Positions 12,749-50,348 of a stretch of DNA of 64,000 bases are shown piece by piece. Within the stretch, counting starts at the first letter, position 1. Each line of letters begins with the position of its first letter. The stretch covers positions 22,435 to 86,434 of the forward strand of contig CACWKU010000001.1 in the NCBI GenBank assembly GCA_902761575.1, given 5' to 3'. The position numbers were made by a program, and so were the translations under genes. This stretch comes from an uncultured bacterium. GTDB taxonomy: Bacteria; Verrucomicrobiota; Kiritimatiellia; RFP12; UBA3636. The notes under the pieces were generated by a model, which was given only the letters and a program-made list of their open reading frames with translations, made no database searches and had not been told where the DNA came from.

Positions 12749-12803
12749 TTCGGCCAGTCCGCCGAAGCGGGCGCGGCGCGACGCCTCGGTTCGGGCGCCC
12801 CGG

Positions 12804-14384: not shown

Positions 14385-14443
14385 GGCTGTCGATTCGCGG
14401 CTTCTCCGGCGCGACCGCCGGGCGGTCGCGTCGAACGGAACCC

Positions 14444-14523: not shown

Positions 14524-14532
14524 CCCCCCGCC

Positions 14533-16236
14533 ATGAGCACGATGAAACCCTTCGATCCCGCCGTCGCGGAGCGCCAGCCGGTCTGGCCCGCCGGAGAGAT
14601 GCCCGACCGCCAGCCCCACCAGATCGCCGCGATGACCGACGAGGCGGAAGCCCCCGGCTTCGACCCCGCCGCGCACACGGAGCCCTTCCTCGACTGGTAT
14701 CCGCCGCCCGCGAACCCCATCGGAGCCTGCGCGATCCTCGTCTCCGGCGGCGCCTACCAGAACTGCTGCGACGTGGGCCTGATCAAGGAGTGGCGCGAGC
14801 GCTTCGAGGCGCTCGGCTGCCAGTGCGTGAACTTCGTCTACCGCACGCCGTGGGCGCGCGGGATGGCGATCTACAAGACCGCGTGGGAGGACGCCCGCCG
14901 CGCCGTCCGCCTCGTGCGCTCGCAGGCCGCCGCGCGCGGCTTCGACCCGGAGCGCATCGTCACGGTCTCGATGTCCGCCGGCTCGCACCTCTCGCTGCTC
15001 CTCGCGACGGCGTCGCAGACGAAGGTCTACGAGCCCGTCGACGCGCTCGACGAGATTCCCTGCCACGTGAACGCCGCCGTCGCCTTCGCGCCGGCCGGGA
15101 TGCTCTCCGACGGCCCGATGTGCCCGAACGAGCGCGACGGCGACGGCCTCGACATCGAGCTCGACCCCGCCTTCGCGTTCGACGCGAAGACGCCGCCGGT
15201 CTTCCTCTCGCACGGCGGCGCCGACGCGTACTCGACGTTCAACTCGACGCGCATCTACCGCCGCCTGCGCGCGGCGGGCGTCCCGGCCGAGCTGCACATC
15301 CATCCCGACAAGCCGCACGGCATGTTCGGCCTCGAGCGCGGCGTCGAGTTCCTGCGCCAGATCGGCTTCCTCGGCCCGCTCGGGCCCGAGGTGCCGATCC
15401 TCGAGCGGTTCGCGTCCGACGACGCGCGCGACGGCGCCGCGGAGGCCGCGCCGATCTGGCCGGAGGGGCGCATGCCCCACCCGCAGGCGGACCAGTGCGA
15501 GCCGATCCTCGAGTGGCACCTCCCGAAGAAGCGCACGACCGACGCCATCCAGATCGTCTGGAGCGGCGGCGCCTACCTCGGCAACGACCCGGACGGCTTC
15601 GAGGTCGCGCCCGCGCGGCGCTACCTGAACGGGAAGGGCATGGCCGTCGTCACGGTCCGCTACCGCACGCCGCGCCCCTCCCCTCCCCTCGCCAAGCACG
15701 TCGCGGCGTGGCAGGACGTCCAGCGCGCGGTCCGGCTCGTCCGCGCCGGCGCCGCGGCGCGCGGCCTCGACCCGGACCGCATCGGCGTGATGGGCAGCTC
15801 CGCCGGCGGGCACCTGGCGCTGCTGGCCGCGACCGGCTCGCGCCACCGCACCTACCTTCCGGTCGACGAGACCGACGCCCTACCCTGCACCGTGCAGTGG
15901 TGCGTTGCGATCTACCCGGCCTACACGATCGAGGGCACCTACGACAACGGGACACCCGACGGCTCCAACGACCCGGCGCTGCGCCTCGCCCCGGAGCTGC
16001 CGTTCGACCCCGACACGCCGCCGATCCTCTTCGTGCACGGCGACGCGGACGAACACCCCGCCACGGCATCCGTCGCGACGTGGGAGCAGCTGCGCCGCAT
16101 GGGCGTCCAGGGCGCGGTGCACACGCTCGCCAGGCGCGGCCACTGCTTCTACTTCGCCGCCGCCCCCGGCACCGGCTCCTACACCTTCCTCGACCGGGTC
16201 TGGGAGTTCCTGACGGACAAAGGCTTCAACAAGTAG
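14533..16236 (+). CDS. tandem-duplicated alpha/beta-hydrolase (esterase/lipase) protein, two GxSxG domains, no signal peptide
   Basis: Track ORF. Nucleophile elbows SMSAGSH and GSSAGGH. Each half ends with an HGxADxxV/HP motif. Confidence 0.65.
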   Translation: MSTMKPFDPAVAERQPVWPAGEMPDRQPHQIAAMTDEAEAPGFDPAAHTEPFLDWYPPPANPIGACAILVSGGAYQNCCDVGLIKEWRERFEALGCQCVNFVYRTPWARGMAIYKTAWEDARRAVRLVRSQAAARGFDPERIVTVSMSAGSHLSLLLATASQTKVYEPVDALDEIPCHVNAAVAFAPAGMLSDGPMCPNERDGDGLDIELDPAFAFDAKTPPVFLSHGGADAYSTFNSTRIYRRLRAAGVPAELHIHPDKPHGMFGLERGVEFLRQIGFLGPLGPEVPILERFASDDARDGAAEAAPIWPEGRMPHPQADQCEPILEWHLPKKRTTDAIQIVWSGGAYLGNDPDGFEVAPARRYLNGKGMAVVTVRYRTPRPSPPLAKHVAAWQDVQRAVRLVRAGAAARGLDPDRIGVMGSSAGGHLALLAATGSRHRTYLPVDETDALPCTVQWCVAIYPAYTIEGTYDNGTPDGSNDPALRLAPELPFDPDTPPILFVHGDADEHPATASVATWEQLRRMGVQGAVHTLARRGHCFYFAAAPGTGSYTFLDRVWEFLTDKGFNK

Positions 16237-17158
16237 CCCGAAGCGGGAACCCGGCCGACTCGCGCAGGAGCGCGGTGATGCGCGCGGAGACGGCGTCCTC
16301 CGGCGCGCGGAGGCGCAGGACGCGCGCGTTGCCCGCCGGATCGGGCGCGAAGGGCGTGGAGAGGTCCGGCGCCACGCGGACGCGCCCCGGCTCGCCAAGC
16401 CCGTAGCACTCGTTCTCGCCGTGGACCGCGAGGTCGACGGTGACCGGGTCCCAGCTCGGGCGCGTCATCCCGGGGCCGCAGTAGCGCCGGAACGCCTCGG
16501 CGAGCGGATGCGCGGCGCAGTCCGGCGGCAGGCCGGAGAGGTCGGTGACCACCTTCTCGCCGCTCTCGAACCCGACGAAGACGATCGGGCCGTCCCACGC
16601 GTCGAGGAAGCGGCGCGTGGCCTCCGGGCGTTCGCGGACGTTGGTCTCCGCGTAGCCCGCGCACCGTCCGAAGCCGCCCGCCATCGCCCAGACGGCGCGC
16701 ACCTTGCGTCGGAAGAGCGCGGGGTCCTCCGCGAGGACCTCGTCGAGCGTGTTGAAGAAGCCGATCGAGATCACGTCGACGGAGCCGTCCGCCGCCTCCG
16801 CGAAGACGCGGCGGTAGAGCTCGCGCGCGGCGCACGACGTGGCGGGGTGCGCACCCCGCCACAATGCCGCGAGCGCGGCGAGATACGGGGACTCGTTGCC
16901 GCTCGGCGGAGGCGGGTCGTCCGTGACGCCGACGGGGACGTCCTGCAGGCCCCACGCGGCGAGGACCGCCTTCACCGCGGGCGCGGCGAGCGGCGTCTCG
17001 ACGTTGCACGAGACGCCGCCGATGCGGAACGCGCCGGCGTGGCGGCGCGACTCGGCGCAAAGCAGCGCGAGCGCGGCGACGTCGTCGACGTCGCCGCAGA
17101 AGTCCGTCTCGAGAACGACGGTCGCGCCCGTGCGGGCGGCGAGGGGCTCGGGCGTCAT
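16226..17158 (-). CDS. nucleoside hydrolase (inosine/uridine-preferring family)
   Basis: Start MTPEPLAARTGATVVLETDFCGDVDDVAALALL carries the DxDxxxDD aspartate cluster. ATGA overlap with the upstream CDS stop at 17155-17158. Confidence 0.7.
   Translation of the reverse strand: MTPEPLAARTGATVVLETDFCGDVDDVAALALLCAESRRHAGAFRIGGVSCNVETPLAAPAVKAVLAAWGLQDVPVGVTDDPPPPSGNESPYLAALAALWRGAHPATSCAARELYRRVFAEAADGSVDVISIGFFNTLDEVLAEDPALFRRKVRAVWAMAGGFGRCAGYAETNVRERPEATRRFLDAWDGPIVFVGFESGEKVVTDLSGLPPDCAAHPLAEAFRRYCGPGMTRPSWDPVTVDLAVHGENECYGLGEPGRVRVAPDLSTPFAPDPAGNARVLRLRAPEDAVSARITALLRESAGFPLRATC
16839..16862. repeat. perfect 24-nt palindrome GTGGCGGGGTGCGCACCCCGCCAC inside the nucleoside hydrolase CDS (encodes WRGAHPAT)
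   Basis: Exact palindrome. In-frame translation LWRGAHPATS. Confidence 0.85.
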
Positions 17159-19524
17159 CGCAGAACCAGGATGGTCGGGGGGTCGCCGTAGTGTTCGAAG
17201 CACCCGACGTCGGGGCCGCCGCCGAAGTCGCGTGGCCGCTTGCCGAGGAAGTCGCGCGCGCCGGCCATCCAGTCGCAGAGAACGCCGGCATCCCTCAGCG
17301 GCGACTTCGCGCGGGGAGACCAGTCTCCCTTGTCCGGCTTCGCGAAACGGACGCCCCTTTCGTCGCAGGCCGCCGTGATCCGCGCGGACGCGCCCGACGG
17401 ATCGCGCGCGAGGACCTCCGCGACGGCGTTGGCGCTTCCGCCCTCGACGACCGTGCTCGCGATCCGGACCACGTTGGTCAGGGACGGGCAGTTGTCGACG
17501 GGGGACTCGCACCAGTAGAGGCCGGGCGCGCCCCTGTACTTCCGGCCCCAGGGCCAGCCGTCGGTCTTCGGGAGGTTGTCCCAGAACACGCAGTTGGTGA
17601 TCGCGGGGACCGACGAGTCGTTCTGGAAGTAGACGAGGCCTCCGACGTTGCGGACGAAGGTGCAGTTCGCGAGGGCGGGGAAGCTGCCCAGCTTGAACGG
17701 GCACCGGTTGTCGACGAAGAGCGTGCTGGTGATCTTGGCGACGGACGCGTCCGGCGACCGGAAGAAGGACGGCAGTTGGCTTCCGCTCGACGAGGTGTTG
17801 ATCGTCGTCGCGGTGTCCGAAACCACGCATCGGTCGAGCCGGGCGCGGCCGTAGAAGAGCCCGGCGTTCGAGGAATCGAGCACGTTGCCGGCGATCGTGC
17901 AGGCAACGAGGCGGACGGCTCCGTTCGGGCAGTCGCCGTTGTTGGAGCCGAACGTCATTCCGGCCAGCCCGCCGCCGTCCGAGCGGAGCGTCTGGTTCCG
18001 GAAGACGCAGTTCGTAACGGTCGTGTGGCTCGTCGCGGCGACGGATGTCTGCCCCCGGCTGGCGGTCCGCTCGACGTAGCAGGCGTCGAACGCCGAATTC
18101 TCGATCCAGAGCGAACCGTAGATCGCGCCGCCTGCGTTCCACATATCGGTCCAGGACGTTCCGCACCGGACGAACTCGCATCCGTCGACGATGCCGTATT
18201 CGGACCGCGCGTCGAAGTCCGTGTGCGTTTCGTCGGGGGCGTAGATCGCGCCGCCGAAGCGCGCCGTGCAGTCGACGAAATCGCAGTCGCGGATGGTCGC
18301 CGTGTTGACCGCCGCCGAACCGTCGAGCCGGATCGCGCCGCCCTTGTCCGAGCTGCCGTTCTTGAAGGTGACGCCCCGGACGGTGAAGCCGGACGCGGAC
18401 ACCCGGAGCAGGTTGGCGGACGAATCGCCGTCGAGGATCGTCTTGCCCTTGCCCTCGCGCGAGACGACCGTCAGGTTCGCCGCGGTGACGTCGATCGCCG
18501 ACGTCGCCGTGTAGATGCCGCGGTTCACGACGACCGTCGCGCCGTTGGTCGCGCCCTCGATCTCCGCCTTGAGCCGGGCGAAGTCCCCGACCGTCGCGAA
18601 GATCTCGAAGGAAACGCCCGCCGGCAGAGAGGTCTTGCCCTTGTCGCTTTCGATCGTGACCGTGCAGACGTAGTCGCCGTCGGCGAGGTTCGGGATGGCG
18701 AACTCGGCCGTCTCGCCGGTCTGGTCGCGGAGGACAGTCACCGGATCGCCGCCGTTCAGGCTGTACGAGACGGAATACTTCGTCGCGGGGTTCCCGTCCA
18801 CGTCCGTGCCCATCCCGACGTCCGCGAGCGCGATGGTCGCCGTCCGGCGGAGCGTGGAGGCGGACAGGGAGCCGATCGTCGGATGGGAGCCCGAGATGAT
18901 CTTGCGGACCTGGACCGCGTTGAAGAAGGCGGGTGCGCCCTCGTATTCGAACGTGAACGACTCGGTCCCGTTCTCGGCCGTGAACGTTCCGACGAGGGAG
19001 CCTCCGTACTGGAAGAAATAGCCTTGCGGCCGGGCGGAACACGAATGGTCCGGAGCCCAGACTTCGGTGCCGGCGGCGCCGGTGTTGGAGACGTCCGTGC
19101 AGTGGAGAATCAACTGCACGGCGTAGGTGGCTCCCGGCGTGAGCTTCTTGAGCTGAAGTTCGTGGTCGCCGACGCTCGACCACCATCCGTGCGACAGCAG
19201 GTTGGAGTAGGCGCCCGAAACACCCGGGGGAGGGACGTTCTCGTCCCCGTGCCAATGCCACTCGCCCGAAAAGCCGAAATCGGGGCATCCGGCGACGTCC
19301 TGCCGCCCGACGAACGGAACGCCGTTGACCGCGTTGGTGACGGCGGCGCCGCCGTTCGCCTGGCACCAGGCGTACGCAAGCGTTCCGTTCGTGATGATCG
19401 AATTGCCGGACTGGCTCATCGTGACCTCCTGCCACGTGACGTACGTCGCGGCGCCGGCGACGGGAACGAACAGAGATCCCGAGAGGATGGCGATCAAAAG
19501 TGTCAGAAGGGTCTTGGATTTCAT
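17155..19524 (-). CDS. secreted protein: N-terminal malectin-like domain, Ig-like domain, right-handed parallel beta-helix (pectate-lyase fold) C-terminal region
   Basis: Start MKSKTLLTLLIAILSGSLFVPVAGA at 19522-19524. Motifs ...HGWWSS...AVQLI...FNAVQVRKI, then beta-helix repeats (DGDSSANLLRVSASGFTVRGVTFKNG...). Confidence 0.65.
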   Translation of the reverse strand: MKSKTLLTLLIAILSGSLFVPVAGAATYVTWQEVTMSQSGNSIITNGTLAYAWCQANGGAAVTNAVNGVPFVGRQDVAGCPDFGFSGEWHWHGDENVPPPGVSGAYSNLLSHGWWSSVGDHELQLKKLTPGATYAVQLILHCTDVSNTGAAGTEVWAPDHSCSARPQGYFFQYGGSLVGTFTAENGTESFTFEYEGAPAFFNAVQVRKIISGSHPTIGSLSASTLRRTATIALADVGMGTDVDGNPATKYSVSYSLNGGDPVTVLRDQTGETAEFAIPNLADGDYVCTVTIESDKGKTSLPAGVSFEIFATVGDFARLKAEIEGATNGATVVVNRGIYTATSAIDVTAANLTVVSREGKGKTILDGDSSANLLRVSASGFTVRGVTFKNGSSDKGGAIRLDGSAAVNTATIRDCDFVDCTARFGGAIYAPDETHTDFDARSEYGIVDGCEFVRCGTSWTDMWNAGGAIYGSLWIENSAFDACYVERTASRGQTSVAATSHTTVTNCVFRNQTLRSDGGGLAGMTFGSNNGDCPNGAVRLVACTIAGNVLDSSNAGLFYGRARLDRCVVSDTATTINTSSSGSQLPSFFRSPDASVAKITSTLFVDNRCPFKLGSFPALANCTFVRNVGGLVYFQNDSSVPAITNCVFWDNLPKTDGWPWGRKYRGAPGLYWCESPVDNCPSLTNVVRIASTVVEGGSANAVAEVLARDPSGASARITAACDERGVRFAKPDKGDWSPRAKSPLRDAGVLCDWMAGARDFLGKRPRDFGGGPDVGCFEHYGDPPTILVLR

Positions 19525-19591
19525 GGTTCGCTCCCGGCTACGGGTTGCCTGGTCGGGCGAACGCGACGACGTCCCCCGCCACGAGTCCGGA

Positions 19592-19648
19592 ATCATAGTG
19601 CATCCGGCCTTGCGACGGTAGGGACGGCGCGGCCAAAAATGGGTAAAT
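19592..19648 (-). promoter_or_regulatory. promoter of 17155..19524: -10 TATGAT plus upstream ATTTACCCATTTTTG element
   Basis: rc ATCATA at 19592-19597. Element AAAAATGGGTAAAT at 19635-19648. Confidence 0.5.
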
Positions 19649-19694
19649 ACGAGGGCGGCCCGGTTGCTCGCCCAGGCGTCATTTCCGACGATGC

Positions 19695-21764
19695 CTACTT
19701 GACGATGATGATCGTGCCAAGGACCGGGCCGAACGTGTATTTCCCGTTGCCCTTCGCGGCGAAGCTCCAAAGCCCCGACCCGGGCGGCACGTCGCCCTCG
19801 AACGCCAGCCGGGGCGTGCCGTCCACGCGACTGGCCGTGAACGCCGTGACGGCGGGGTTGTGCGAATACGTCGCCAGGTTCTCCGGATCCGTGATCGTGA
19901 ACGTCGCGCCGGGCGCGAACGTGAGTCCGGCGGGGAAATCCGCGTACCGGCCCGCGAACAGGTCCGCGCACGAGGCGCGCAGGGAGTTCGTCACCGTGAC
20001 CGCGATGTTGGTGGCCCCTGCCGGGTCCGTCACGGCGCCCGCGCCCGCGAACGAGGAGAGAACGATCGAGTCGGCGCCCTCCGGGAGCCGCAGCGTCGCG
20101 CCGTACTCCACGCGCACGGACGTGTTGCTCGGCACGACGCCGTCCGTCTCGGCATGGAGCGTCCCCGACTCGACCGCTATGCCGTAAAACGTGTTGGTGG
20201 CATAGAGGAAGAGATCGTGAGTCCCGCGCTTCACCAGTTCGCCGCCCAGCCCCGCGTTGTCGGAGAGCGTGAGCGCGCATTCGTAGCGCGTAGCGCGGTT
20301 GTAGCTCTCCACATACGCCTTCGCGTTGTCGCTGTAGTCGCATCCGCGCGAGGTGACAACGACCCGCGAATGCGTCTTCGTTTCGTAGTCGTATTCGACG
20401 TAGGCGCTCGCGCCCCAGCCGGTCTCGTCCTCGAACACGATGCGCGCGGGGCCGAAATATGGCTCCGTCGTGTAGTCCCCCTCGGTCGGCAGAGCGACGG
20501 ACGCGACGCCCTTTCCCGTCGGCGCGGCAAACGAAAAAGGCATATGACTCACGGGGTTGTTTCCGGTCAATTCCGACGTGTCGATGACGAGGCCTTTCTT
20601 CCAGACGACGAAATGGCTGGGATTGCCCTTGTAGAAGTCCGCATGAGTCGGCCCAACCCCCGTCCAGTCGCTCGCCATCGTCGGCATCAGCGTTCCGCCG
20701 TCGGCGTTGACGGTAATGAGCGAAGCCGCGCCGGCAGCCCGGTGCTTGAAGAAACGCGCGGCCTTTACCGTCGCGCCGTCCTTCACGTTGAACACGTTTG
20801 TGGAAATCGTTCCGTTCCCGCCGCCAAACCGAAGCGTCTCGGTCGTAAGCAGCGTCCCCTCGCCCGACACCGTGACGTCGGAACAGCCACCGTAATCGCT
20901 AAGAAGAAAGCGCTGGGTCTGTCCGCCTTGCGTAACGCACGTGTCGTTCGTGCCGCCGGCCAGGTGGAACACGGCCGTTCCGGCGCGACTGGCGTGCACG
21001 GCGCTCTTGCTCCCGCCCTCCAGTTTGAAGAGCCCGCCCGTCTGGATAAAGCTGCCAAAACTGCCGGCGGTATGCGCGACATGGACGTTGTTGCTCACGT
21101 ACGCTTCGCCGCCCGACATGGCCCAGTGCCCTATGTCCGTGGCATTCATGCCGACTGCCGTTTCACCCTTCGCGACAAGGATGCCGCCCGTCTGGTGGAA
21201 CACGCCATAGCCGTCGTTTCCAACGCGAACCTTGTTGAGAAGCGTGTGCCCGTCGCCCATCAGAGACCGGCTTCCGCCTTTCACGATGAACCAATCGCGG
21301 AACACGCGCGATGCCGTGCTGATCATTTGCATAAGACCTTGGTCGATTTGCACACCGCACGCGAGGTCGACATTGCCGTTTAGGTACAGTACGCCCGTCC
21401 CCCTCTTGCGGAACAAGATGTCCGACGTGGTGGTCGAGCCGCGGGTCAAGGTTCCGTTGAGACGCAATTCGTTTGATCCGGCGGTTTCGATGTAGAGAGC
21501 GCCTTCCTCGATCACCACGTCGCCCGAATACTCCGTCGTCGTCGTCCGCAGCACCACCGTTCCGGCACCCCTCTTCACGACCCGCGAGAAACCGTCAATC
21601 GCCGCAACGACCGTATACTCTTCGCCGGCGTCGGCCGTCACGACGTAGTCCGTACCTTCCGCACCCTCGCTGCCGGCCCGCGCCGAGAGCGGGGCGAACA
21701 ACGTGCACGATGCGATGGTCGCCGCGAGGGTGGCGGCGGCGTTTCTCCTTGCGATGCATTTCAT
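19695..21764 (-). CDS. secreted autotransporter-associated beta-strand repeat (PATR-like) protein
   Basis: Track ORF. N-terminal signal/lipobox-like AATLAATIASC. Repeated G-rich beta-strand units (GTGVLYLNGN..., GGTLM...). Confidence 0.5.
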   Translation of the reverse strand: MKCIARRNAAATLAATIASCTLFAPLSARAGSEGAEGTDYVVTADAGEEYTVVAAIDGFSRVVKRGAGTVVLRTTTTEYSGDVVIEEGALYIETAGSNELRLNGTLTRGSTTTSDILFRKRGTGVLYLNGNVDLACGVQIDQGLMQMISTASRVFRDWFIVKGGSRSLMGDGHTLLNKVRVGNDGYGVFHQTGGILVAKGETAVGMNATDIGHWAMSGGEAYVSNNVHVAHTAGSFGSFIQTGGLFKLEGGSKSAVHASRAGTAVFHLAGGTNDTCVTQGGQTQRFLLSDYGGCSDVTVSGEGTLLTTETLRFGGGNGTISTNVFNVKDGATVKAARFFKHRAAGAASLITVNADGGTLMPTMASDWTGVGPTHADFYKGNPSHFVVWKKGLVIDTSELTGNNPVSHMPFSFAAPTGKGVASVALPTEGDYTTEPYFGPARIVFEDETGWGASAYVEYDYETKTHSRVVVTSRGCDYSDNAKAYVESYNRATRYECALTLSDNAGLGGELVKRGTHDLFLYATNTFYGIAVESGTLHAETDGVVPSNTSVRVEYGATLRLPEGADSIVLSSFAGAGAVTDPAGATNIAVTVTNSLRASCADLFAGRYADFPAGLTFAPGATFTITDPENLATYSHNPAVTAFTASRVDGTPRLAFEGDVPPGSGLWSFAAKGNGKYTFGPVLGTIIIVK

Positions 21765-27092: not shown

Positions 27093-27103
27093 CCGCGAGA
27101 CAT

Positions 27104-27144
27104 CTCCCTCGCGTGTCGTGGTGGCACCCCGCCACGCGAGGGAG
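27104..27144 (-). terminator. 12-bp-stem hairpin CTCCCTCGCGTG / CACGCGAGGGAG downstream of the 2097-aa gene stop, followed on the sense strand by TTTT
   Basis: Loop contains a half-copy of the palindrome (GTGGTGGCACCCCGCCAC). Confidence 0.45.
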
Positions 27145-27173
27145 GCGCGCGGCTCGCTTCGTCGGTCGCGCGG

Positions 27174-30100
27174 CTATTCCGGCATGCGCACCCAGACCCG
27201 GAAGAAGCGGCTGTCGGCGTTCGGCGCGGTCCAGACCTCGTTCGTGAGGAAGGGCTTGCCCTCTATGGTGTAGACGCGCTTGGCGCCGAGGTCCGGATGC
27301 CAGGAGATCTCCGGCTCGTCGCCGGGCACGAGGATGTCCGCGAGGAAGCGCGAGAGCGCATCGAGCGGGTTCAGGCCCGCGACGAACTCCTCCCAGAGCG
27401 TGTCGCCCTTGCCCGACGGCAGCGGCTTCAGCGCCTCGTAGCCGCTGGTCGACCCGATGCCGTGGAAGTCGATCCACGCCTCCCATTCGCCCTTCGTCGC
27501 CTCCGGAATCCACTGCACGCAGTCGAGGAAGCCGCGGTCTTCGCCGTCGGCCATTCCGGAGTCCTTCGCGTAGGTCCAGCGCAGCGTGTGCGCCCCCTCC
27601 CCCTCGACGGCGAACGACGCCCGCTCCCACTTCGTCCGCCCGTCGAGACGCGCCTTCTCGACGCCGTCGACGAGAAACGCAAGGTGGTCCCAGTCGCGAT
27701 AGCCGCTGTCGTCGCGCTCGCACGAGGCGCGCCAGCGGAAATCGATCTGTCCCGGTCCTTCGACCGTCGTCTCGATCCAGCTTTCGCCGTTGTCGCCGGG
27801 CGACGCGGAGGTCGCGCGGTGGACGCCGTCCGCCGAGTCCTCGGTCGCCTCGGGAACCCACGGATCGTCGTCCCCGGTCGTGAAGGCGAGCTGCGGCATG
27901 TTGACCGCCGTCGCGAGCCCGAGCGTCGAGCCGAGCGCCGGAACGCCCGCCCCCGAACGGCCCGCGAGGTTCTCCGAGACAACGAAGTAGTAGTAGGTCT
28001 TCCCGGGCTCGACCGTCACGTCGGTCCACGAAAGGCCCTCCGTCGTCCCGAGCTCCTCCGCCGCCGCGAGGTCGGGCGACGTCCCGCGGCAGACGCGGTA
28101 GGAGTCCGCCGTCTCCACGGCGTCCCACGAGAGCGCGATGCCCGCGCCTTCCTGCGCCGCCGCGAGGCCGTCCGGCGCCTGCGCCACGTAGACATGGACG
28201 ATCGTCGCGGTCGCGACCTCGCTCGCCCAATCGCCGCGCACCACGGCGATCGCCTTCACCGTCGTCGTCTCAAGGATCGAAAACTTGACGGAAGTCGCGC
28301 TGTTCGTCGCCGGGTCGGAACCGTCCACCGTGTGGTAGATCTTCGCGTCCGGATCGGTGCACGTGAGCATCACCGACTGCGAGTTCTTGTTCGCGAACTG
28401 CGTTCCGTCCGGCGGATCGATGACGGGCGTCGCCGGTACGCCGTATTCGTAGCAGCCCATGTCCACCGCCGCGTGCGCGACGCGCGGATTGCCGGCGAGG
28501 TCCGTCTTCCCCGCCGCCCACGACGTGTCGCCCGCGTCGACGCACGGCGCCACCGCGCGCACGCGGTAGTCGCCGTTCGCCGCGTCGAAGAAGAGGTCCG
28601 CCGCCGACGCGACGATATTGCTAGTCCCGACGGTTTCCGTGTCGAGGCAGGAATAGTCGACGTTGCACGTCGCGGCATGGACTTCGGTTCCGACCGGTAC
28701 ATTCTCGACGAAATTGCCGACAATGACGCAGTTTGTCGCGACGCATTTTCCGATGGCGCATGCCCCCAGACTAATGGCGTTCGTATTCGCGGCAACGGTG
28801 CAGTTCGCAAGCGAACATTTGTAGGCGGCACTGGGTGCACAACCGCTGTGATCGTCGTTCCAGACGACATTGCCGGCAATCAGGCAGTTCTCCATGTCGG
28901 CTTCGTACGCCGCGCCCCATTTCCGGCTGACATTACCGGTCAAAATGCAGTTCTTCAATGTCGCAGTCAGAACGGCCGACCCCCCACCCGAACAGTATCC
29001 ATTACGGAACATGAATCCTTCCATTGTCACGAGCCCGCGGAGGGTTTCGTAGTAATAGGCGCTCGGATCCGTCGGCTGATACGCCGCCATCTGGATACAG
29101 CGCCGGAGCCCTTGACCGTCGATGATCGTCGTCGCGGGACCGTTTGCGCTTCGAATGCGCAGGTGTGCGCTTTTCCAGTTCACGATGGAACTGGAAGCCT
29201 GCGCATCGCCCGTATAGACGCCGTCCGCCACGACGATTTCGTCGCCGTCCGCCGCCCAGTCGATGGCATTCTGGATGGTCGCCTTCGCCGTTTCCCAGGA
29301 GAGGCCGTCGTTCGCATCGTCGCCCGTCGCCTGCGCGACGTATTGCGTCGCCGCCGCGTAGTGGGTGGCCCATTCGTAGCAACCCATGTCGGTCCCGACG
29401 CCGATCCACCGCGAGTGGCCATCGAGGTCGGTTCCAAGCTTGGCCTCGGTTGTCAGTCCGCCCGCGTCGATGCACGGCGAGCCCGCCGTGAGCCGGTAGT
29501 CGCCGTTCGCCGCGTCGACGAAGAGCGGATCGGCGTCGATGTTGCCCGAGCCGGAGACGGCCGAACCGAAGCAGGAATAGGTCGCGGTGGAATTGTAGAT
29601 ATCGTTTGCGGCTCCGCTCGTGTAGGCGTTTCCGTAGACGATGCAGGATTCGAGCGTGCAGAAGTCGCAACCGCCGCCGCCGGGCTTGCTGGAAGAACCG
29701 TAGACGGCCCGGTTGTCCACAATCGTGCACCGGACCGCATCGCAGCTGCCAAGTCCGCCGCCCGTCGTGGCGGCGACGATGTTGTTCGCCAGATTGTCCG
29801 CAATCAAGCAATCTTCCAGCCGGGAATTCATGGCGCCGCCCCCGCCGGCGGACGAAACGTTGTTGGAAACGATGCATCGAAAGGCAATGCTGCATTGAAG
29901 TCCCCCGCCGTAGCCGCGGAACGAAGGGTCGTCGTCTTTCCCGGCGTAGTTCCCCGTCACGATGCACGCTTCCAGAATTCCGCCGCGAACGCCGGCTCCG
30001 TGGTCGTTCCGGCCGTTCCGCAACGTAAAGCCGACAAGCGTCGTTTTCACGGCATCGGTCCTTTCGGCACCTAGCGTCGCGCAGCGGTTCGTGCCGCCGC

Positions 30101-33100
30101 CGTCGACGATGGTCTTCTCCGCGCCTTCGACGCTGCGGATGACGATGTCCTTGTTCCTTGCGACGAACGGTTCGTAGACGCCGTTCGTGACGAGGACCGT
30201 GTTGCCCGCGACGGTGCGGTCCGCCGCGTTCTGGATCGTCCGCAGCGCGTCGTCCCACGAACGCCCCGTGTTCTCGTCATCGCCGCGTTCCGCGTCGACG
30301 TACCAGACCGTTTCCGCGGGTTCCGGATCTTCGCAGACAAGACGGAAGCCGACGTCGCTGTATTTGGTAGAAGCGCCGTCTTGGATGCGAAAGGCCGAAC
30401 GGCAACGATTGGCCGCGAACTTCCATCCGCCGCCGCGCCTCGAACGATGCGTTCCGGAACCGGCCCCCGCGGGATTGACCGCGGGTCCGCCGTCCAATTC
30501 GGCATACCAGTCGAGGCACCATTCGTAAACGTTGCCGTGCATGTCGAAAAGGCCCCATCGGTTCGGAAGATAGGACCCGACCGCTGCATGGTGGTCGTTC
30601 CCCCGGTTGTCGACGTATCGTCCGAGTTCCGCCAGATTGGCGCTGTAGCCCTCCGCTGATTCCAGATTCTTTCCAGAGTTCAAGGAGGATTCTGTCCCCG
30701 CGCGGCAGGCATATTCCCACTGCGCTTCGGTCGGGAGGTCGAAGCCGTCCAGGCCCGTCTTCGCGCGGAGGACGCCGAGGAAGCTCGAAGCGTCCACGGC
30801 GCTGCTCGCCGGGAAGTTCGTTCCCGCGTCGTCGCCGCGGATCATGTCGTAGGAAACCGTCTCGATCGGGTGGGTTCCTCCGAGATTCTGCGCCACGTTC
30901 GTTCCCATCACGAGTTCCCATTGCTTCTGCGTCACCTCGAAAACGCCGGCGTAGAAGCCGCGCGAGAGCGTGACGCGGTGGAGCGTCTCGTTGTCCTGAC
31001 GGCCTAGCTCGTCCTCCGGGCTGCCCATCCAGAACGAGCCCTCCGGCACATTGCGGAGGACGAGTTTCGTCGTCTTGTATTCCTCGGTCCAGCCGCCCGC
31101 GGGAACGTCGGAGAGGTAGGAGACCGGATAGGAGGTCGCGTTCGTTCCACCCGAGAGGTCGACGACGAGGAAGCGGGTCTCGTCGACCGGATCGATGCCG
31201 AACGGATAGACGAACGTGCCCTCGTAGTTGTTCTTGCCGGTCACGCGGACGCCCGCCGTGCCGACGTCCACGTTGTCGACGTATTCGACGTCGTAGTTCT
31301 CCGCGCCGAGGATGTCCGGCCAGCCGTCGCGGATGTGGACCTCGGGCGTCTTCGGCGTTCCGTCCCACACCTGGTCCGGAACGACGCACATCATCGAGGG
31401 GTCGATCCGCTTCTTCCGGACGGTGAGCGTCGCGGCGTTCGTGACGGCGGGATAGCCCGGCGCCGTCGCGACGACCCAGACCGGATGCTCGCCCGCGTCC
31501 GTGAACGACGGCGCCTCCGCCGTGAACGGGCCTTCCGCGGAAAGACCGTAGAGAATCGTCGCCTCCGCGCCGGGGAAGTCCGCCGTCACGGAGAGCGCGT
31601 TCGGGCCGCCGTTGTAGACGACATCCGTCCCCTCGACCTTGAGCCACGACTCCGGTCCCGCCTCGTAGGCGCCGATGTCCACGTGCGCGCCCTGCACGCG
31701 CGCGTTGCCCCAGAGGTCGGAGTCGCTCACCGCGTTCGCGTCGCTTCCCGCGTCGATGCAGGGCGACGAACCGAGCAGGCGGAAGTCGCCGGCAGCCTCG
31801 TCCGCGAACTTCGGGAACGCGACGATGTTCCCTTCGCCCTCCTTCAGCGACGTGAGGCAGCAGTGGTCGAGCGTGCACGCCGCCACGTCCGCTGCGATGC
31901 CGCCCACCGTGTTCCCCGTCACGATGCAGTTGTAGACCTTGCAGTCGTAGAGCCCTCCGGCGGGAGCCCCGGCAACGGCCTCGTTCCCGATGACCGTGCA
32001 GTTATAGAGGTCGCACTGGTAGGCACCTCCCGCGGCGGCGGTTCCGTCGGACGACAAAGACGCGTTTCCGAGAATCAGGCAGTTTACGAGTTTACAGCCG
32101 CCCGCGCCGCCGACCGTTTTCTCCGCATTCAGGCATTTCGTGGTCGTGCAATCCTGGATGACGCAGTTTTCCACGATACCGTGCGAAACTCCTCCTAGGT
32201 TCGTGAACAAGCCGTTTGTAATCGTAAAACCGACGAGCGTCGCAACGCGATCCGCCGTCCTTCCGTCGAGAGAAGCCGAAAGTTTTGCGCAACGGTATTT
32301 GCCTTCTCCGTCGAGAATCGTCTTTTCCGGTCCGTTCACACTTTTGATCAGGAGCTTGCCGCTGGTAGCATGGCAGTCGAGAACCATGTTTCCCGAGACC
32401 CTTTTGTATGTTCCGTCGTTCACGAGAACCGTGTCCCCGTCGATCGCCTCGTCCACCGTGGATTGGATGGACTTCTTCGCCGCGCTCCAGGAGAGACCGT
32501 CGTTCGAGTCGTTTCCGGAGGCGGCGTCCACGTGCCACGTCACGGGTTCACGGTATTCGTAGCAGCCGGCGTCCACGATTCCGTTCACGATGCGCCGACT
32601 TCCGCGAAGATCGTAATTCGTCGGAACCAATTCGTTCGTACCCGCGTCGACGCACGGCGATTCCGGGCGGAGACGGTAGACGCCGGCCGCGGCGTCGACG
32701 AACGGCGATTCGGAAAGGACGCCGTTGTTCGAGCCAGGAAGAACAACTTCGGCAAACGAGTTTGTGGCGGAAAAACTGGAGGAAACAAGCGATGCGGATC
32801 CTGTTTCGTTGCCGAACACGACGCAGTTGGCCAGGACGGAATCCGAAAACACGGCGCCAGATCCGTCAAAACCGCCATTGTTCGAAAACGTGCAATTGAA
32901 AGCGGTCGAATTCCGGACGAGGCATTGCAAAGCCCTGTTTCCGACGACCAGGCAATTGTCCATTCGGACTGTGTGGAGGACGACTTTGGAGTTCAAAGAC
33001 GTTCCCTTCACAATGCACTTCCTCAGTTTGGTCCAAGCTACTCCTCCGGTGTCTTGATGCAATCCGTTCTGCAACGTGAATCCGTCGAAAAGCAGGCAAT

Positions 33101-33467
33101 GGTCCATCCAGTCATTTTGATGGGCCGTGTTCGTTCCCTTGGCGACGCGGCGCTGACCATCGGCGTCGATGATCGTGACGAGAGGGCCGTCCGTGCTGCG
33201 GACCGTAGCAGAACGCCCATTGGAATTATAGACGGCACCAACGGAGTCCGCCGTCTCCTTGTAGGTTCCCGGGCCGACGAGGATCAAGTCGCCGTCGGAG
33301 CAGGAAGTCACCGCCTTTTGGATCGTTTTGAAGGGCTTTGCGGAAGTGCCTTCGTTCGAGTCGGAACCCGAAGAGGCGGAAACGTACCAGTTCTTCGCGA
33401 ACCCGGAGGGCGCGAAACCGGCGAGAAGAAGAAGGAACGAGACTGCGGGGAGGCGCGAGCGGAGCAT
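27174..33467 (-). CDS. 2097-aa secreted protein: four right-handed parallel beta-helix modules, internal FGE-sulfatase (SUMF1-like) domain, Ig/Fn3-like domains, unknown C-terminal domain
   Basis: Track ORF with signal peptide MLRSRLPAVSFLLLLAGFAPSGFA. Four module starts have the form W(Y/H)V(D/S)A..G(D/N)D.N.G(T/L)SW..A..(T/S)IQ.A.D.A..GD.(I/V)LV, each ending ...FVDAA.GDYRL...SPC(I/V)DAG. The FGE-like stretch includes HGNVYEWCLDWY...RGGGW. Confidence 0.8.
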   Translation of the reverse strand: MLRSRLPAVSFLLLLAGFAPSGFAKNWYVSASSGSDSNEGTSAKPFKTIQKAVTSCSDGDLILVGPGTYKETADSVGAVYNSNGRSATVRSTDGPLVTIIDADGQRRVAKGTNTAHQNDWMDHCLLFDGFTLQNGLHQDTGGVAWTKLRKCIVKGTSLNSKVVLHTVRMDNCLVVGNRALQCLVRNSTAFNCTFSNNGGFDGSGAVFSDSVLANCVVFGNETGSASLVSSSFSATNSFAEVVLPGSNNGVLSESPFVDAAAGVYRLRPESPCVDAGTNELVPTNYDLRGSRRIVNGIVDAGCYEYREPVTWHVDAASGNDSNDGLSWSAAKKSIQSTVDEAIDGDTVLVNDGTYKRVSGNMVLDCHATSGKLLIKSVNGPEKTILDGEGKYRCAKLSASLDGRTADRVATLVGFTITNGLFTNLGGVSHGIVENCVIQDCTTTKCLNAEKTVGGAGGCKLVNCLILGNASLSSDGTAAAGGAYQCDLYNCTVIGNEAVAGAPAGGLYDCKVYNCIVTGNTVGGIAADVAACTLDHCCLTSLKEGEGNIVAFPKFADEAAGDFRLLGSSPCIDAGSDANAVSDSDLWGNARVQGAHVDIGAYEAGPESWLKVEGTDVVYNGGPNALSVTADFPGAEATILYGLSAEGPFTAEAPSFTDAGEHPVWVVATAPGYPAVTNAATLTVRKKRIDPSMMCVVPDQVWDGTPKTPEVHIRDGWPDILGAENYDVEYVDNVDVGTAGVRVTGKNNYEGTFVYPFGIDPVDETRFLVVDLSGGTNATSYPVSYLSDVPAGGWTEEYKTTKLVLRNVPEGSFWMGSPEDELGRQDNETLHRVTLSRGFYAGVFEVTQKQWELVMGTNVAQNLGGTHPIETVSYDMIRGDDAGTNFPASSAVDASSFLGVLRAKTGLDGFDLPTEAQWEYACRAGTESSLNSGKNLESAEGYSANLAELGRYVDNRGNDHHAAVGSYLPNRWGLFDMHGNVYEWCLDWYAELDGGPAVNPAGAGSGTHRSRRGGGWKFAANRCRSAFRIQDGASTKYSDVGFRLVCEDPEPAETVWYVDAERGDDENTGRSWDDALRTIQNAADRTVAGNTVLVTNGVYEPFVARNKDIVIRSVEGAEKTIVDGGGTNRCATLGAERTDAVKTTLVGFTLRNGRNDHGAGVRGGILEACIVTGNYAGKDDDPSFRGYGGGLQCSIAFRCIVSNNVSSAGGGGAMNSRLEDCLIADNLANNIVAATTGGGLGSCDAVRCTIVDNRAVYGSSSKPGGGGCDFCTLESCIVYGNAYTSGAANDIYNSTATYSCFGSAVSGSGNIDADPLFVDAANGDYRLTAGSPCIDAGGLTTEAKLGTDLDGHSRWIGVGTDMGCYEWATHYAAATQYVAQATGDDANDGLSWETAKATIQNAIDWAADGDEIVVADGVYTGDAQASSSIVNWKSAHLRIRSANGPATTIIDGQGLRRCIQMAAYQPTDPSAYYYETLRGLVTMEGFMFRNGYCSGGGSAVLTATLKNCILTGNVSRKWGAAYEADMENCLIAGNVVWNDDHSGCAPSAAYKCSLANCTVAANTNAISLGACAIGKCVATNCVIVGNFVENVPVGTEVHAATCNVDYSCLDTETVGTSNIVASAADLFFDAANGDYRVRAVAPCVDAGDTSWAAGKTDLAGNPRVAHAAVDMGCYEYGVPATPVIDPPDGTQFANKNSQSVMLTCTDPDAKIYHTVDGSDPATNSATSVKFSILETTTVKAIAVVRGDWASEVATATIVHVYVAQAPDGLAAAQEGAGIALSWDAVETADSYRVCRGTSPDLAAAEELGTTEGLSWTDVTVEPGKTYYYFVVSENLAGRSGAGVPALGSTLGLATAVNMPQLAFTTGDDDPWVPEATEDSADGVHRATSASPGDNGESWIETTVEGPGQIDFRWRASCERDDSGYRDWDHLAFLVDGVEKARLDGRTKWERASFAVEGEGAHTLRWTYAKDSGMADGEDRGFLDCVQWIPEATKGEWEAWIDFHGIGSTSGYEALKPLPSGKGDTLWEEFVAGLNPLDALSRFLADILVPGDEPEISWHPDLGAKRVYTIEGKPFLTNEVWTAPNADSRFFRVWVRMPE

Positions 33468-33681
33468 GGCGGAATCCTTGCCCCGGGGTGTAGAGCCGAA
33501 GGCGGGTTCGGGGCGAAAGAGCCTACCTTCGGTGTCTGCCGTCCGTATGAAACGGCAGGTGCCGAGGCGGGGATGTTTGCCCCGTCACGGCGCGACGGGG
33601 CGTAGGATACCAGAACCGCCCCATGAATACAAGCGCAGTTTGCGGCAAAGCGGGCGCGCGCGAAGGTCCTGGCGGAGCCCG

Positions 33682-33950
33682 CTAGTCCGCGAGCCATTCA
33701 TGGGCCGGGACGACGCGGATGGCTCGGCCGTCCTCGCGGGCGAAGTCGCGCTGCCTCAGCGTGACGATCGTCCCTTCGCGCAGGCCGAACTGCCGCAGGG
33801 CGCCGAGAATCCCGGCCAGTTCGCGCTCGCGGTTCTCGGACACAAGCTCGTAGCAGACCTGCTCCGCGGAGAACGCGCCGGAGGCGTCGGCGAAGACGAA
33901 GTCGCACTCGGAGGCGTCGTCCGCCCAGTAGAAGCGCCGCGCGCTCCGGC
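33682..33950 (-). pseudogene. truncated C-terminal fragment of a COG1373/DUF4143 AAA+ ATPase homolog (no start codon, in-frame stop just upstream)
   Basis: Translation RRFYWADDASECDFVFADASGAFSAEQVCYELVSENRERELAGILGALRQFGLREGTIVTLRQRDFAREDGRAIRVVPAHEWLAD matches the conserved C-terminal block of COG1373 ATPases (..YWRD.SG.EVDFV..). An AT-rich junction at 33985-34040 is adjacent. Confidence 0.5.
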
Positions 33951-34096
33951 GGCGGATCCGCGCCCAGGCGCAACGGAGACGACCATTATTTTACCACGAT
34001 TGCAATATTTTTTTTCTATTGTTGAAATATCTGCCGCGCGTCCAGTTGCTTTCCGAATCAAGGGCGAATCGGACGCGAAGGGCGCGAGGGCGCGTC

Positions 34097-34121
34097 GTGG
34101 CGGGGTGCGACACCCCGCCAC
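34097..34121 (-). terminator. GC-rich palindromic hairpin GTGGCGGGGTGCGaCACCCCGCCAC 8 nt downstream of the GH36-like gene stop
   Basis: Copy of the recurring 24-nt palindrome family. No U-tract. Confidence 0.45.
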
Positions 34122-34128
34122 GGCATCC

Positions 34129-35724
34129 TCAACGAGGCGCGATCTTGACCCAGACGAAGTCGAGCTTGTCGCGGACGGCGACCGTGAGGACGCCGCCTTC
34201 GATCCGCGCTTCGCCGCGACCGCCGATGACGGTCGGCTCCAGGCCGTCCGAGGGCAGGTAGTCGGCGAGGGGCAGGGAGAACTCCTCGCGCGCGTCCAGC
34301 TCGCGGAAGAGAAGCGCCGTTCCCGCCGTTCCGTCGCGGGACGCCGACACGAAGCCCGTCCAGGAGAGGCCGTCCGGCGCGCTCCCGACGGGATGGACGT
34401 AGCCCTCGTGGATCGCGTCGCGCTCCCGCTTCCATCGGGCGATGAGGGGCTTCCACGCCTCGACCGTCTCCCGCGAGAGGTTCTGGATCTCGAACCATCC
34501 GAGCGGCGAGGAGTACATCGCGATCGCGAAGATCGCGTCGCGCGGCCAGCGCAGGGGCGCGAGCGAGTCGCCATCGGGATACAGTTCCGGCTGGCGCTCG
34601 GGGTTCAGGACCTCCATCCGCAGACGCACGGGATCGACGGCGTGCGCGAGGCCCCAGAGGTTCCGCAGCGTGCGGTGCGGCCACCAGAGGCGGCCGTCGC
34701 CCTCGCGGACGTAGCGGTTTTCCACGAAAACGGGGCCGATGCGCGGGAACGCGAAGTAGCCGGGGCGCCGCCCCGCCGTGACGTCGAGGTCGACGGTGAT
34801 GCGGCCGCCCGACCCGTCCATCAGCCGGTCCATCAGCATCCCCTGGCGCGCGAATGCGAGAGGGGTCGGCGTGTCCATCGAGTCGAACTTGAAGTAGTCG
34901 ATGCCGAAAGAGCGGTGGAGGGACAGGAGGAAGTCGGCGTCCCGCCGCCAGTTCGCCGCCTCGTCGGAGGAGTCCGGCCCGAACCACAGCCCGAACTTCA
35001 GGCCCTTCGCGCGCGCCTCCGCGATGAGCGGCGCGAGCCCGCCCGGGAACCGGACGGGGTCGACGTCCCAGAACCCCGCCTCCTCCCACCAGGAGCCCCA
35101 GCGCCCCTTTTCGCCCCTCGCGACGCGGACGGAATTGGCCGTGTAGCCCTTCTCCCAGCCGTCGTCGATCTGGATCACGTCCACGCCGAGCTCGGCCCCC
35201 GCCGCGATCTCGCCCCGCAGGAAGCGCTCGTTGACGCAGGCGTCCTGGTGCCCGTCGCCCCAGGTGTTGGAGAGGAAGAGCCCGTCGCGCCCCGCGACGT
35301 ACGGGCGGAACGACCGGTGGAAGTCCGTGGCCGCGCGGACGCGCCCCGCCCTCCCGCCGCGATAGCCGACGCGGAAGCACCGGTAGGGACTGGAAAGGAT
35401 GCGCAGCATCTGCCGCCCGGGATCCACGTGCCAGTCGGGCGAATCGTCCGCCCGCGCGTGCGGCAGCGGCGCCTGGCGGAAGAAGGCGACGCCCTCCCCG
35501 CCGAGCGAATCCTCGAGGAAGAGCGCCGGTCCGGCAACGTCGAACGGCCTCTCGCAGCGGGAAAGCAGGCGCTCCTTCTCGAAGTAGAGGTCATCGTGCC
35601 GGTCCGTGTCGTCCACCAGCTGGACCTCGACCAGCCGCGGATGCTCCCACGTGTAGCGGAACTCGCCGCCCTCCTCCGCTCCGTACGGAAGCGCACGGAC
35701 CTCGGGCACGACGGAATCGGGCAT
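34129..35724 (-). CDS. alpha-galactosidase-like glycoside hydrolase (clan GH-D, GH36/melibiase-like)
   Basis: Track ORF. Motifs VIQIDDGWEKG and DYFKFDSMD. 14-nt gap to the upstream CDS. Confidence 0.55.
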   Translation of the reverse strand: MPDSVVPEVRALPYGAEEGGEFRYTWEHPRLVEVQLVDDTDRHDDLYFEKERLLSRCERPFDVAGPALFLEDSLGGEGVAFFRQAPLPHARADDSPDWHVDPGRQMLRILSSPYRCFRVGYRGGRAGRVRAATDFHRSFRPYVAGRDGLFLSNTWGDGHQDACVNERFLRGEIAAGAELGVDVIQIDDGWEKGYTANSVRVARGEKGRWGSWWEEAGFWDVDPVRFPGGLAPLIAEARAKGLKFGLWFGPDSSDEAANWRRDADFLLSLHRSFGIDYFKFDSMDTPTPLAFARQGMLMDRLMDGSGGRITVDLDVTAGRRPGYFAFPRIGPVFVENRYVREGDGRLWWPHRTLRNLWGLAHAVDPVRLRMEVLNPERQPELYPDGDSLAPLRWPRDAIFAIAMYSSPLGWFEIQNLSRETVEAWKPLIARWKRERDAIHEGYVHPVGSAPDGLSWTGFVSASRDGTAGTALLFRELDAREEFSLPLADYLPSDGLEPTVIGGRGEARIEGGVLTVAVRDKLDFVWVKIAPR

Positions 35725-48841: not shown

Positions 48842-48943
48842 GCAAGAAATTGTACCATCCGCTCCGTGCCCTCCCCGTGCCCCTCGCTCGCCCCGCGCCG
48901 GGTCGGCGGTGGTCGTAGCTCGCATCGCTCGGTCCCGAAAACC

Positions 48944-49025
48944 AACAAACTCCCGAGTGTTTATTCAACAAACTCCCGAACGATTCTTCAACAAACTCCC
49001 GGACGAAATTTCAACAAACTCCCGA
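48944..49025 (+). repeat. four direct repeats of CAACAAACTCCCGA (period 22-23 bp) immediately upstream of the ATPase promoter
   Basis: Copies at 48944, 48967, 48989 and 49012. The third copy ends in G. Confidence 0.85.
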
Positions 49026-49030
49026 ACAAC

Positions 49031-49059
49031 TTGACATTTCCTTAGATTTCTCATAGAAT
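49031..49059 (+). promoter_or_regulatory. near-consensus sigma70 promoter TTGACA-N17-TAGAAT for the COG1373 ATPase gene; no Shine-Dalgarno site
   Basis: TTGACA at 49031-49036, 17-nt spacer, TAGAAT at 49054-49059, ATG at 49068. Confidence 0.6.
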
Positions 49060-49067
49060 TCGCCACC

Positions 49068-50348
49068 ATGAAACGGTACGCGAAGAGAGTGGCGGATAGT
49101 TTGCTCGCCCGAAAGCTCCAAGGGCTAGGCGCCGTTCTCGTCCAAGGGGCCAAATGGTGCGGCAAGACAACGACCTGCGAACAGGTCGCCAAGAGCGTTC
49201 TGTACATGGGCGACCCGAAGAAGCGCAAGGAGAATCTGGAGATGGCGTCGATCGACGTCACATCGCTTCTGGAGGGTGCGAAGCCAAGGCTCATCGACGA
49301 ATGGCAGGTCGCACCCGTGTTTTGGGACGCGATCCGCCACGCGGTGGACCACGCCGACGGTCCGGGGCAGTTCATCCTGACCGGCAGCGTGGTTCCCCCG
49401 AAGACCGAGGAGAAGACCCATAGCGGGACGGGGCGGATCGCCCGTCTCACCATGCGCCCGATGACGCTCTGGGAAAGCGGTGAGTCGAGCGGAACGATCT
49501 CCCTCGCCGAACTGTTTTCGGGAACGGCCCCGGATAGCGCCCGCGCCATGGGGCGCGAACTGGAGGAGATCGCGTTCCTCGCCTGCCGGGGCGGATGGCC
49601 CCAGGCGGTCCTTCGGAAGGGCGACGTCGCCCTCGACCTCGCCTTCGACTACGTGGACTCGGTCGCGGACGAGGACATCTCGCGCGTGGACGATGTGAGG
49701 CGCGACCCCGCGCGCGCCCGACGCCTTCTGCGCTCCTACGCGCGGCTCCAGGGCTCTCAGGCGAACCTCAAGGCCATCAAGCTTGACATGGCGGGCGGCG
49801 GGATCGACGCCCCGGACGAGGACACCGTCGCCTCCTACCGCGGCGCCCTCGAAAAGCTCTTCGTCGTGGAAGACGTGCCGGCCTGGTGTCCGAACCTTCG
49901 GTGCCGGACCCCTATCCGCACGAGCGGCACGCGCTGCTTCGTCGACCCGTCCATCGCTGCGGCGTCCCTCGGTCTCGGCCCGGGCGGCCTGATGTCCGAC
50001 CTGACGACGTTCGGCTTTTTCTTCGAAACGCTGGCCGTCCGCGACCTTCGCGTCTACGCAGAAGCCCTGTCCGGGAGCGTCGCCCACTACCGTGACGCCT
50101 CCGGGCTCGAATGCGACGCCGTCATCCATCTCCGCAATGGCGCCTACGGTCTCGTCGAGGTCAAGCTCGGCGGCGACCGACTCGTTGCCGAAGGCGTGGA
50201 AACCCTCCTGGCCTTCTCAGGCAAGATCGACACCGACGCAATGAAGGCGCCGGCGTTCCGTATGGTCCTTACGGCCGTCGGCGACTATGCCTACCGTCGT
50301 CCGGCCGATGGCGTCTACGTCTGTCCCCTCTCCGCTCTCTGTCCCTGA
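49068..50348 (+). CDS. AAA+ ATPase of the COG1373 family (DUF4143 C-terminal domain)
   Basis: Track ORF. Walker A GAKWCGKTT. C-terminal ..YRDASGLECDAVI..GLVEVKLG block. GC is lower than the surrounding DNA. Confidence 0.75.
   Translation: MKRYAKRVADSLLARKLQGLGAVLVQGAKWCGKTTTCEQVAKSVLYMGDPKKRKENLEMASIDVTSLLEGAKPRLIDEWQVAPVFWDAIRHAVDHADGPGQFILTGSVVPPKTEEKTHSGTGRIARLTMRPMTLWESGESSGTISLAELFSGTAPDSARAMGRELEEIAFLACRGGWPQAVLRKGDVALDLAFDYVDSVADEDISRVDDVRRDPARARRLLRSYARLQGSQANLKAIKLDMAGGGIDAPDEDTVASYRGALEKLFVVEDVPAWCPNLRCRTPIRTSGTRCFVDPSIAAASLGLGPGGLMSDLTTFGFFFETLAVRDLRVYAEALSGSVAHYRDASGLECDAVIHLRNGAYGLVEVKLGGDRLVAEGVETLLAFSGKIDTDAMKAPAFRMVLTAVGDYAYRRPADGVYVCPLSALCP

Follow-up and report, generated by a model that had tools for sequence, protein, structure and literature searches.

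A probable in-situ deletion pseudogene of a COG1373/PDC-S01 ATPase gene and its putative orphaned promoter in an uncultured Kiritimatiellia bacterium

A spacer of the window (the whole stretch of 64,000 nucleotides that was analysed) contains what we take, with high confidence, to be an in-situ deletion pseudogene of a resident COG1373/PDC-S01 ATPase gene together with the orphaned promoter of that gene; in other words, an ordinary dead gene. The spacer, at 33468-34128, lies 3' of a GH36-like gene and 5' of a gene encoding a protein of 2097 aa, all on the minus strand. The initial annotation had placed it upstream of a GH36-like operon, but this orientation was reversed, the spacer being situated downstream (3') of the GH36-like gene. 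The features of the region are the following.

27098..33656, minus strand: strain-variable segment of 6.56 kb, which starts 25 nt past the stop of the remnant and carries the 2097-aa gene
27174..33467, minus strand: gene of 2097 aa with beta-helix and FGE-sulfatase domains, from the domains found
33682..33966, minus strand: pseudogene remnant, from its translation, the PDC-S01 profile, our own HMM and the identity to intact proteins
33967..33970, minus strand: deletion junction with one residual copy of the 4-bp CGTC microhomology, CGCC in the window and CGTC in L003 and L004
33971..34045, minus strand: AT-rich segment, putative orphaned promoter and 5'-leader region, collinear with the region immediately 5' of the intact ORF in L007, L013 and L014
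33982..33977, minus strand: proposed -10 box TCGTCT at a 17-nt spacing from the -35 box; TAGTCT in the intact alleles
33986..33984, minus strand: first ATG of the long ORF, inside the AT-rich segment
34005..34000, minus strand: proposed -35 box TTGCAA, at a position conserved in relatives
34046..34095, minus strand: GC-rich spacer from hairpin to promoter, in which the word CCCTCGCGCC forms the left breakpoint of a 967-bp deletion in L001
34096..34122, no strand assigned: hairpin with a perfect 12-bp stem, a 3-nt loop and no T-run, just past the stop of the GH36-like gene
34129..35724, minus strand: GH36-like (Melibiase) gene, Pfam PF02065 with E=4e-7; missing from L013

Translation of the minus strand from 33966 to 33685 yields the last 94 codons (W..D) of an ATPase of the AAA_14+DUF4143 type (COG1373, PDC-S01 in PADLOC). 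The remnant reads WARIRRRSARRFYWADDASECDFVFADASGAFSAEQVCYELVSENRERELAGILGALRQFGLREGTIVTLRQRDFAREDGRAIRVVPAHEWLAD and is closed by a TAG stop at 33684..33682. Its minus-strand frame, ...SW*NNGRLRCAWARIRRRSARRFYWADDASECDFV...VPAHEWLAD*, is identical to the one quoted in the initial annotation, which had described a decayed C-terminal piece of a COG1373 ATPase that has no start codon and is preceded by an in-frame TAA. Both observations were borne out. The TAA is located at 33993..33991, no usable start codon is present in this frame 5' of the homologous part and a Shine-Dalgarno sequence or ribosome-binding site was not found before it. The sole internal start is a GTG at 33843, from which 53 aa would be read. 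With neither start codon nor ribosome-binding site and with the TAA at its 5' side, the window copy does not constitute a complete translatable ORF.

The similarity of the remnant to COG1373 ATPases is far above chance. The PADLOC model PDLC04787 (PDC-S01) recognized the 94-aa fragment with E=5.1e-12 at model positions 323-407 of 412 (last 85 matched). An HMM of our own, built from 36 full-length homologues that were each at most 50% identical to the search query, was run against 815 six-frame segments of the window and gave 89.5 bits (E=7e-27) for the remnant and no other match. A profile search had been named beforehand as the test that could overturn the proposed homology, and in both profile searches the remnant was significant. 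It was also detected by tblastn with full-length P0014, which is 43% identical, as the query (E=5e-16). In a large protein collection P0001 and P0002 were found to be 88-92% identical to the fragment and to continue into DUF4143 at their N-terminal side; when a longer relative was used as the query, P0008 (328 aa, AAA_14 + DUF4143, 98% identical) was retrieved along with some 100 homologues of the COG1373 type. Altogether, the remnant is 92-98% identical to the C-termini of the intact proteins in L013, L014 and P0008, and its nucleotides are 94-96% identical to the 3' ends of the intact ORFs in L013 and L014.

Pfam (including PF13635) and NCBIfam produced no family match with the fragment alone, just a sub-threshold FeoA. 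Pfam is silent because no more than about 37 of the fragment's 94 residues are covered by the DUF4143 model, which spans residues 215-360 of the 415-aa intact ORF, the remainder being a 55-residue C-terminal tail past the model. The match to the DUF4143 block, as it had been put initially, is correct for the C-terminus of COG1373 but holds for a part of the fragment only where the domain itself is concerned. The N-terminal P-loop AAA_14 part, represented by residues 1-245 of P0008, had no tblastn match in the window, and Rfam returned only sub-threshold chance matches for 33300-34300. The other ATPase of the window, which is intact and located at 49068..50348, fails to detect the remnant when it is used as the query (BLASTP E=0.11; no match with tblastn). 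This comparison had been suggested as a check, and its non-significant outcome would have led to a wrong rejection of the homology of the remnant.

Intact alleles were found by scanning one genome per species. Two sequences, L013 (RUG13889) and L014 (the 'Verrucomicrobia' MAG SRR873595_bin.42), both from the rumen, carry an uninterrupted ORF of 415 aa at the exact locus of the remnant, or of 401 aa if counted from the MLESEL start, which is preceded by the purine-rich AAAGGGAAAGGAA. This ORF contains AAA_14 (PF13173) with E=1e-28 and DUF4143 with E=1e-19. The nucleotide identity of L013 and L014 to the window amounts to 94-97% on both flanks of the deletion, and the hairpin, the spacer and the AT-rich segment of the window also precede the gene in relatives with the intact locus. 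L014 5908-7757 corresponds to window 35813-33969 and L014 8702-9079 to window 33967-33590. Alignment of the breakpoints with L014, L013 and L007 revealed that the window equals the intact locus minus 944 bp, bounded by a CGTC word on each side. The intact alleles read CCGTTGCGTC followed by GAAAGGG at the left breakpoint and AACGCCGTC followed by TGGGCG at the right one. In the deletion alleles L003 and L004 CCGTTGCGTC is joined directly to TGGGCG; the window itself has CCGTTGCGCCTGGGCG here, owing to a subsequent T>C substitution at 33968. Lost along with the 944 bp were 307 codons, together with the start codon and the ribosome-binding site. A junction of this kind is characteristic of a deletion between direct repeats of 4 bp.

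L003 (Logan SRR23823296) and L004 (GCA_002631825.1) are two further assemblies, independent and from different sources, and the junction they have in common with the window sits within collinear sequence on either side in all three. It is therefore no assembly artefact, and the notion that the whole arrangement is an artefact or a chimera has next to no probability. It would draw on the short contigs L006, L017 and L018, in which the 3' part of the gene is joined to unrelated sequence of lower GC content and which may themselves be chimeras. The joins in these contigs (L006 1-109, L017 1-1387 and L018 1-254 plus 402-752) are at three different points, and one of them leads to a predicted fusion with a Rossmann-fold N-terminus. 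As either chimeric assemblies or further truncation alleles, the three were left out of the lesion count given below.

The AT-rich segment that had been noticed next to the remnant is real, its GC content being 0.50 at 33950-34049 vs 0.68-0.76 on the flanks, but the 51-nt string quoted for it is found at 33983-34033 and not at 33985-34040. It had been regarded as a junction or element end. The same segment is, however, present directly 5' of the same gene in L007, L013 and L014, where it would act as the promoter and 5' leader of the intact gene. The pattern TTGCnn-17-TAnnCT aligns in these three sequences and recurs 5' of the 70-78% identical orthologues of L015 and L016, the neighbourhoods of which are unrelated. 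Because the pattern is kept before orthologues in unrelated neighbourhoods, the segment is read as the gene's own promoter; from its position and its conservation among orthologues, it would represent the promoter and 5' leader of the lost gene, which are now orphaned. The hexamer at the proposed -10 position is TAGTCT in L013 and L014, TATTCT in L007, TATGCT in L015, CATCTT in L016, TCGTCC in L004 and TAGTCG in L003. In the window it has been changed from TAGTCT to TCGTCT. The deletion begins 10 nt past this box. A scan of the spacer for consensus sigma-70 promoters and terminators gave 0 sites, TTGCnn-17-TAnnCT being below the threshold of the scan.

The initial annotation explained the remnant and the AT-rich segment by repeated and partly erased insertions of an ATPase-bearing element. 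On that account the remnant would be the leftover of a separate insertion of a mobile element, and the AT-rich segment would be the end of this element, sharing TTCAACAA with the repeats that precede the ATPase at 49068. We consider this highly improbable. Its presence before the gene in L007, L013 and L014 means that the AT-rich segment is no scar, and the polymorphisms of the locus are internal microhomology deletions and not the presence or absence of a unit with fixed ends. Instead of repeated insertions there is one clean internal deletion of 944 bp, and element ends were not found: at 33400-34200 a search for terminal inverted or direct repeats and target duplications gave nothing beyond the 12-bp hairpin and some short GC-rich matches attributable to chance. 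Past the stop codon of the gene no similarity between the orthologous loci was seen. That orthologues with the same promoter architecture occur in unrelated Kiritimatiellae neighbourhoods is compatible with gene and promoter moving together. Among the immediate neighbours in the window (the GH36-like gene and the beta-helix / FGE-sulfatase giant gene) there is no transposase or integrase.

The proposed relation between the two ATPases does not hold either. Over the N-terminal 300 residues the ATPase at 49068..50348 (AAA_14 + DUF4143) is 22% identical to the lost one (E=6e-4), and by this measure the two are distant paralogues and not copies of one element. Of the five occurrences of the word TTCAACAA in the window, three belong to the 23-nt tandem repeats preceding the intact ATPase, and the other two are at 34026..34019 and 16225. 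In the AT-rich segment it is unconserved: alleles that have retained the gene differ in it (TCAGCAA in L014, TCAATAA in L007), and the orthologous promoters of L015 and L016 lack it. The 23-nt repeat unit of the intact ATPase matches the motif in its first 8 nt only. What does speak for a connection is the 10-nt word ATTTCAACAA, common to the AT-rich segment and the region upstream of the intact ATPase: a shared word of this length was reached in 45/5000 (same orientation) to 105/5000 (both strands) shuffles, which is nominally unusual. The intact alleles at the same locus, the microhomology breakpoints and the absence of terminal repeats at 33400-34200 all speak against reading the segment as an element junction or scar.

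The region upstream of the intact ATPase has some features of its own. At 48943-49067 it contains 3.7 copies of the 23-nt tandem repeat CAACAAACTCCCGAACGATTATT, which look like an operator or iteron array. Located 3' of the repeats is a near-consensus TTGACA-17-TAGAAT promoter; its -10 box ends 8 nt before the ATG, a distance which suggests that the mRNA of the intact ATPase might be leaderless or near-leaderless. In the related rumen contig L008 three COG1373 paralogues are found within 10 kb (9259-20669), interleaved with repeated PEP-CTERM-type gene cassettes, and the paralogue of 456 aa is preceded by three 33-nt tandem repeats (GATTTCGTGACATTTGGCTTGAAATCGAATATT) at 12503-12785. Directly 3' of the orthologous ATPase in L016, at about 6400-6540, lie at least five AT-rich palindromes TTTCCAAT(G/GA)(T/G)TTGGAAA in a genome that is otherwise very GC-rich.

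Apart from its missing 5' part, the remnant is well preserved, and gene callers predict ORFs of 60-61 aa on the same stretch in relatives (P0005, P0006). Remnants with a similar start point also exist in another lineage (P0004 in L002). The C-terminal piece could on these grounds be imagined to work as a small gene of its own, encoding a PD-(D/E)XK-like or winged-helix tail that stands alone and was kept after the deletion. This we find barely credible. In the window one private change, V35E (GTG -> GAG), removes the very start that is used by the gene callers in the relatives, and this comes in addition to the lack of any other start codon and of a Shine-Dalgarno sequence and to the in-frame TAA upstream. 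The preservation is explained by a recent deletion, since the flanking DNA is equally similar (94-97%). Moreover, the private changes of the window remnant comprise 6 non-synonymous vs 1 synonymous, which suggests relaxed selection on the remnant, with counts too small for proof; the intact L014 allele likewise has 5 non-synonymous and 2 synonymous changes, again small counts. An in-situ pseudogene remains the preferred reading, and the remnant is most likely without function.

The gene has been damaged in other ways as well. L001 has an independent deletion of 967 bp between two CCCTCGCGCC words, from just past the hairpin into the codons ARSLAPKK. In L007 a 19-nt deletion between TTCGC words causes a frameshift ahead of the P-loop and in L005 the first codon that is retained in the window is changed from TGG to TGA, each of these two lesions being represented by one short metagenomic contig in which an assembly or sequencing error is possible. 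In all three deletions short direct repeats (4, 5 and 10 bp) are present at both breakpoints, of which one copy has been kept. With three lesions that are independent of the 944-bp deletion in the window, the gene appears to be decaying repeatedly in the same lineage. More distant orthologues of the lost ATPase were located in Kiritimatiellae MAGs by the scan of one genome per species. P0009 in L008, a more distant copy, begins within the P-loop, immediately 3' of the stop codon of the gene before it, and further truncated or fragmented distant copies are P0004 in L002, L025 and L027. The latter two come from a scan of JGI metagenomes, which also yielded 84-87% identical intact orthologues elsewhere in other contexts and no further alleles from the species of the window.

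At least four independent knock-out lesions beside intact alleles in one rumen Kiritimatiellae/Verrucomicrobia-like species could be taken to reflect selection against carriage of the gene (because of cost or autoimmunity) and not neutral decay, and the orphaned promoter might then feed the glycan-related 2097-aa gene. We regard this as an unlikely extension of the present results.

Variation at this locus concerns the neighbouring genes too. In place of 27098-33656 about 61 nt of unrelated sequence is present in L001, L003, L004 and L013. L014 shares the first 67 nt of this strain-variable segment (to 33590), after which YcjX-like and DUF697 genes follow. The ends of 27098-33656 show no target duplication. 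In L013 (RUG13889) the alignment at 4810/4811 jumps from window 35473 to 34045, by which most of the GH36-like gene and the hairpin are gone; this 1.4-kb deletion ends within the promoter-proximal spacer and has left the ATPase intact. With the GH36-like gene, the ATPase and the giant gene each present or absent depending on the strain, the locus is, from the alleles compared, a local hotspot of gene-content variation. Comparison with L015, L016, L008 and L002 by tblastx revealed no shared neighbours and much high-GC noise.

The hairpin at 34096..34122 is probably a transcript end (factor-dependent terminator) or a REP-like palindrome. The palindrome GGCGGGGTG-CG(A)C-CACCCCGCC is found thrice in the window, at 16841-16860, 34099-34119 and 60075-60094, while none is expected by chance.

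The course of events that we propose begins with a resident single-gene COG1373/PDC-S01 ATPase that would have had its own promoter and have occupied the place between the GH36-like gene and the minus-strand gene that follows it. A single deletion of 944 bp between the CGTC words, of the replication-slippage or illegitimate-recombination type, would then have removed everything from 10 nt past the proposed -10 box through codon 307, with the entire ATPase domain and the greater part of DUF4143 among the losses. What would be left is the promoter region fused to the startless last 94 codons, and any transcript of this remnant would at most be an untranslated leader that runs toward the 2097-aa gene, which has the same orientation. 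For annotation purposes, the spacer is best described as a COG1373/PDC-S01 pseudogene with an orphaned promoter and not as an element junction, and counts of defence candidates in rumen MAGs should leave out such relics. That one species has both intact alleles and alleles broken independently of each other provides a modest natural example of the fast loss of single-gene defence candidates by microhomology deletion.

PDC-S01 has been described as a single-gene phage defence candidate that combines an ATPase with a PD-(D/E)XK domain in one protein; it is experimentally unvalidated and ranks fourth in frequency among the defence calls in prokaryotes (PMC12988326). In rumen genomes it is the most frequent single defence-candidate locus (PMC13356809). 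DUF4143/COG1373 has been classed in the PD-(D/E)XK superfamily (PMC3424549). The remnant has kept ECDF and QVC, the motifs of the C-terminal part that resembles PD-(D/E)XK. Alignment of the 36 homologues showed E-C-D-F and Q-V-C to be near-invariant in the subfamily of the lost ATPase (window positions 33907-33896 and 33863-33855), and where these proteins have E-C-D-F ... Q-V-C, the paralogue at 49068 reads E-C-D ... E-V-K. In the subfamily of the lost ATPase the acidic and lysine pair expected for PD-(D/E)XK is thus replaced by Gln and Cys, yet it is strongly conserved. A sequence search of the PDB with the intact protein gave no related solved structure.

The intact allele L014 has the same AAA_14 (PF13173) and DUF4143 (PF13635) architecture as the known PDC-S01 proteins and matches PDLC04787 end to end (E=2.5e-95). 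The window copy differs in having neither start codon nor ribosome-binding site, no ATPase domain and only a small part of DUF4143, and it is accordingly a relic. Its junction resembles known pseudogene deletions mediated by microhomology (slippage or illegitimate recombination) in having short repeats at the breakpoints; nothing about it is unusual, the mechanism being deduced here from the junctions only. The ATPase at 49068..50348 has the two-domain architecture and the PADLOC family in common with the lost ATPase, but it belongs to another subfamily model (best model PDLC04790, E=2.5e-57) and has a different upstream region, with four 23-nt tandem repeats and TTGACA-17-TAGAAT.
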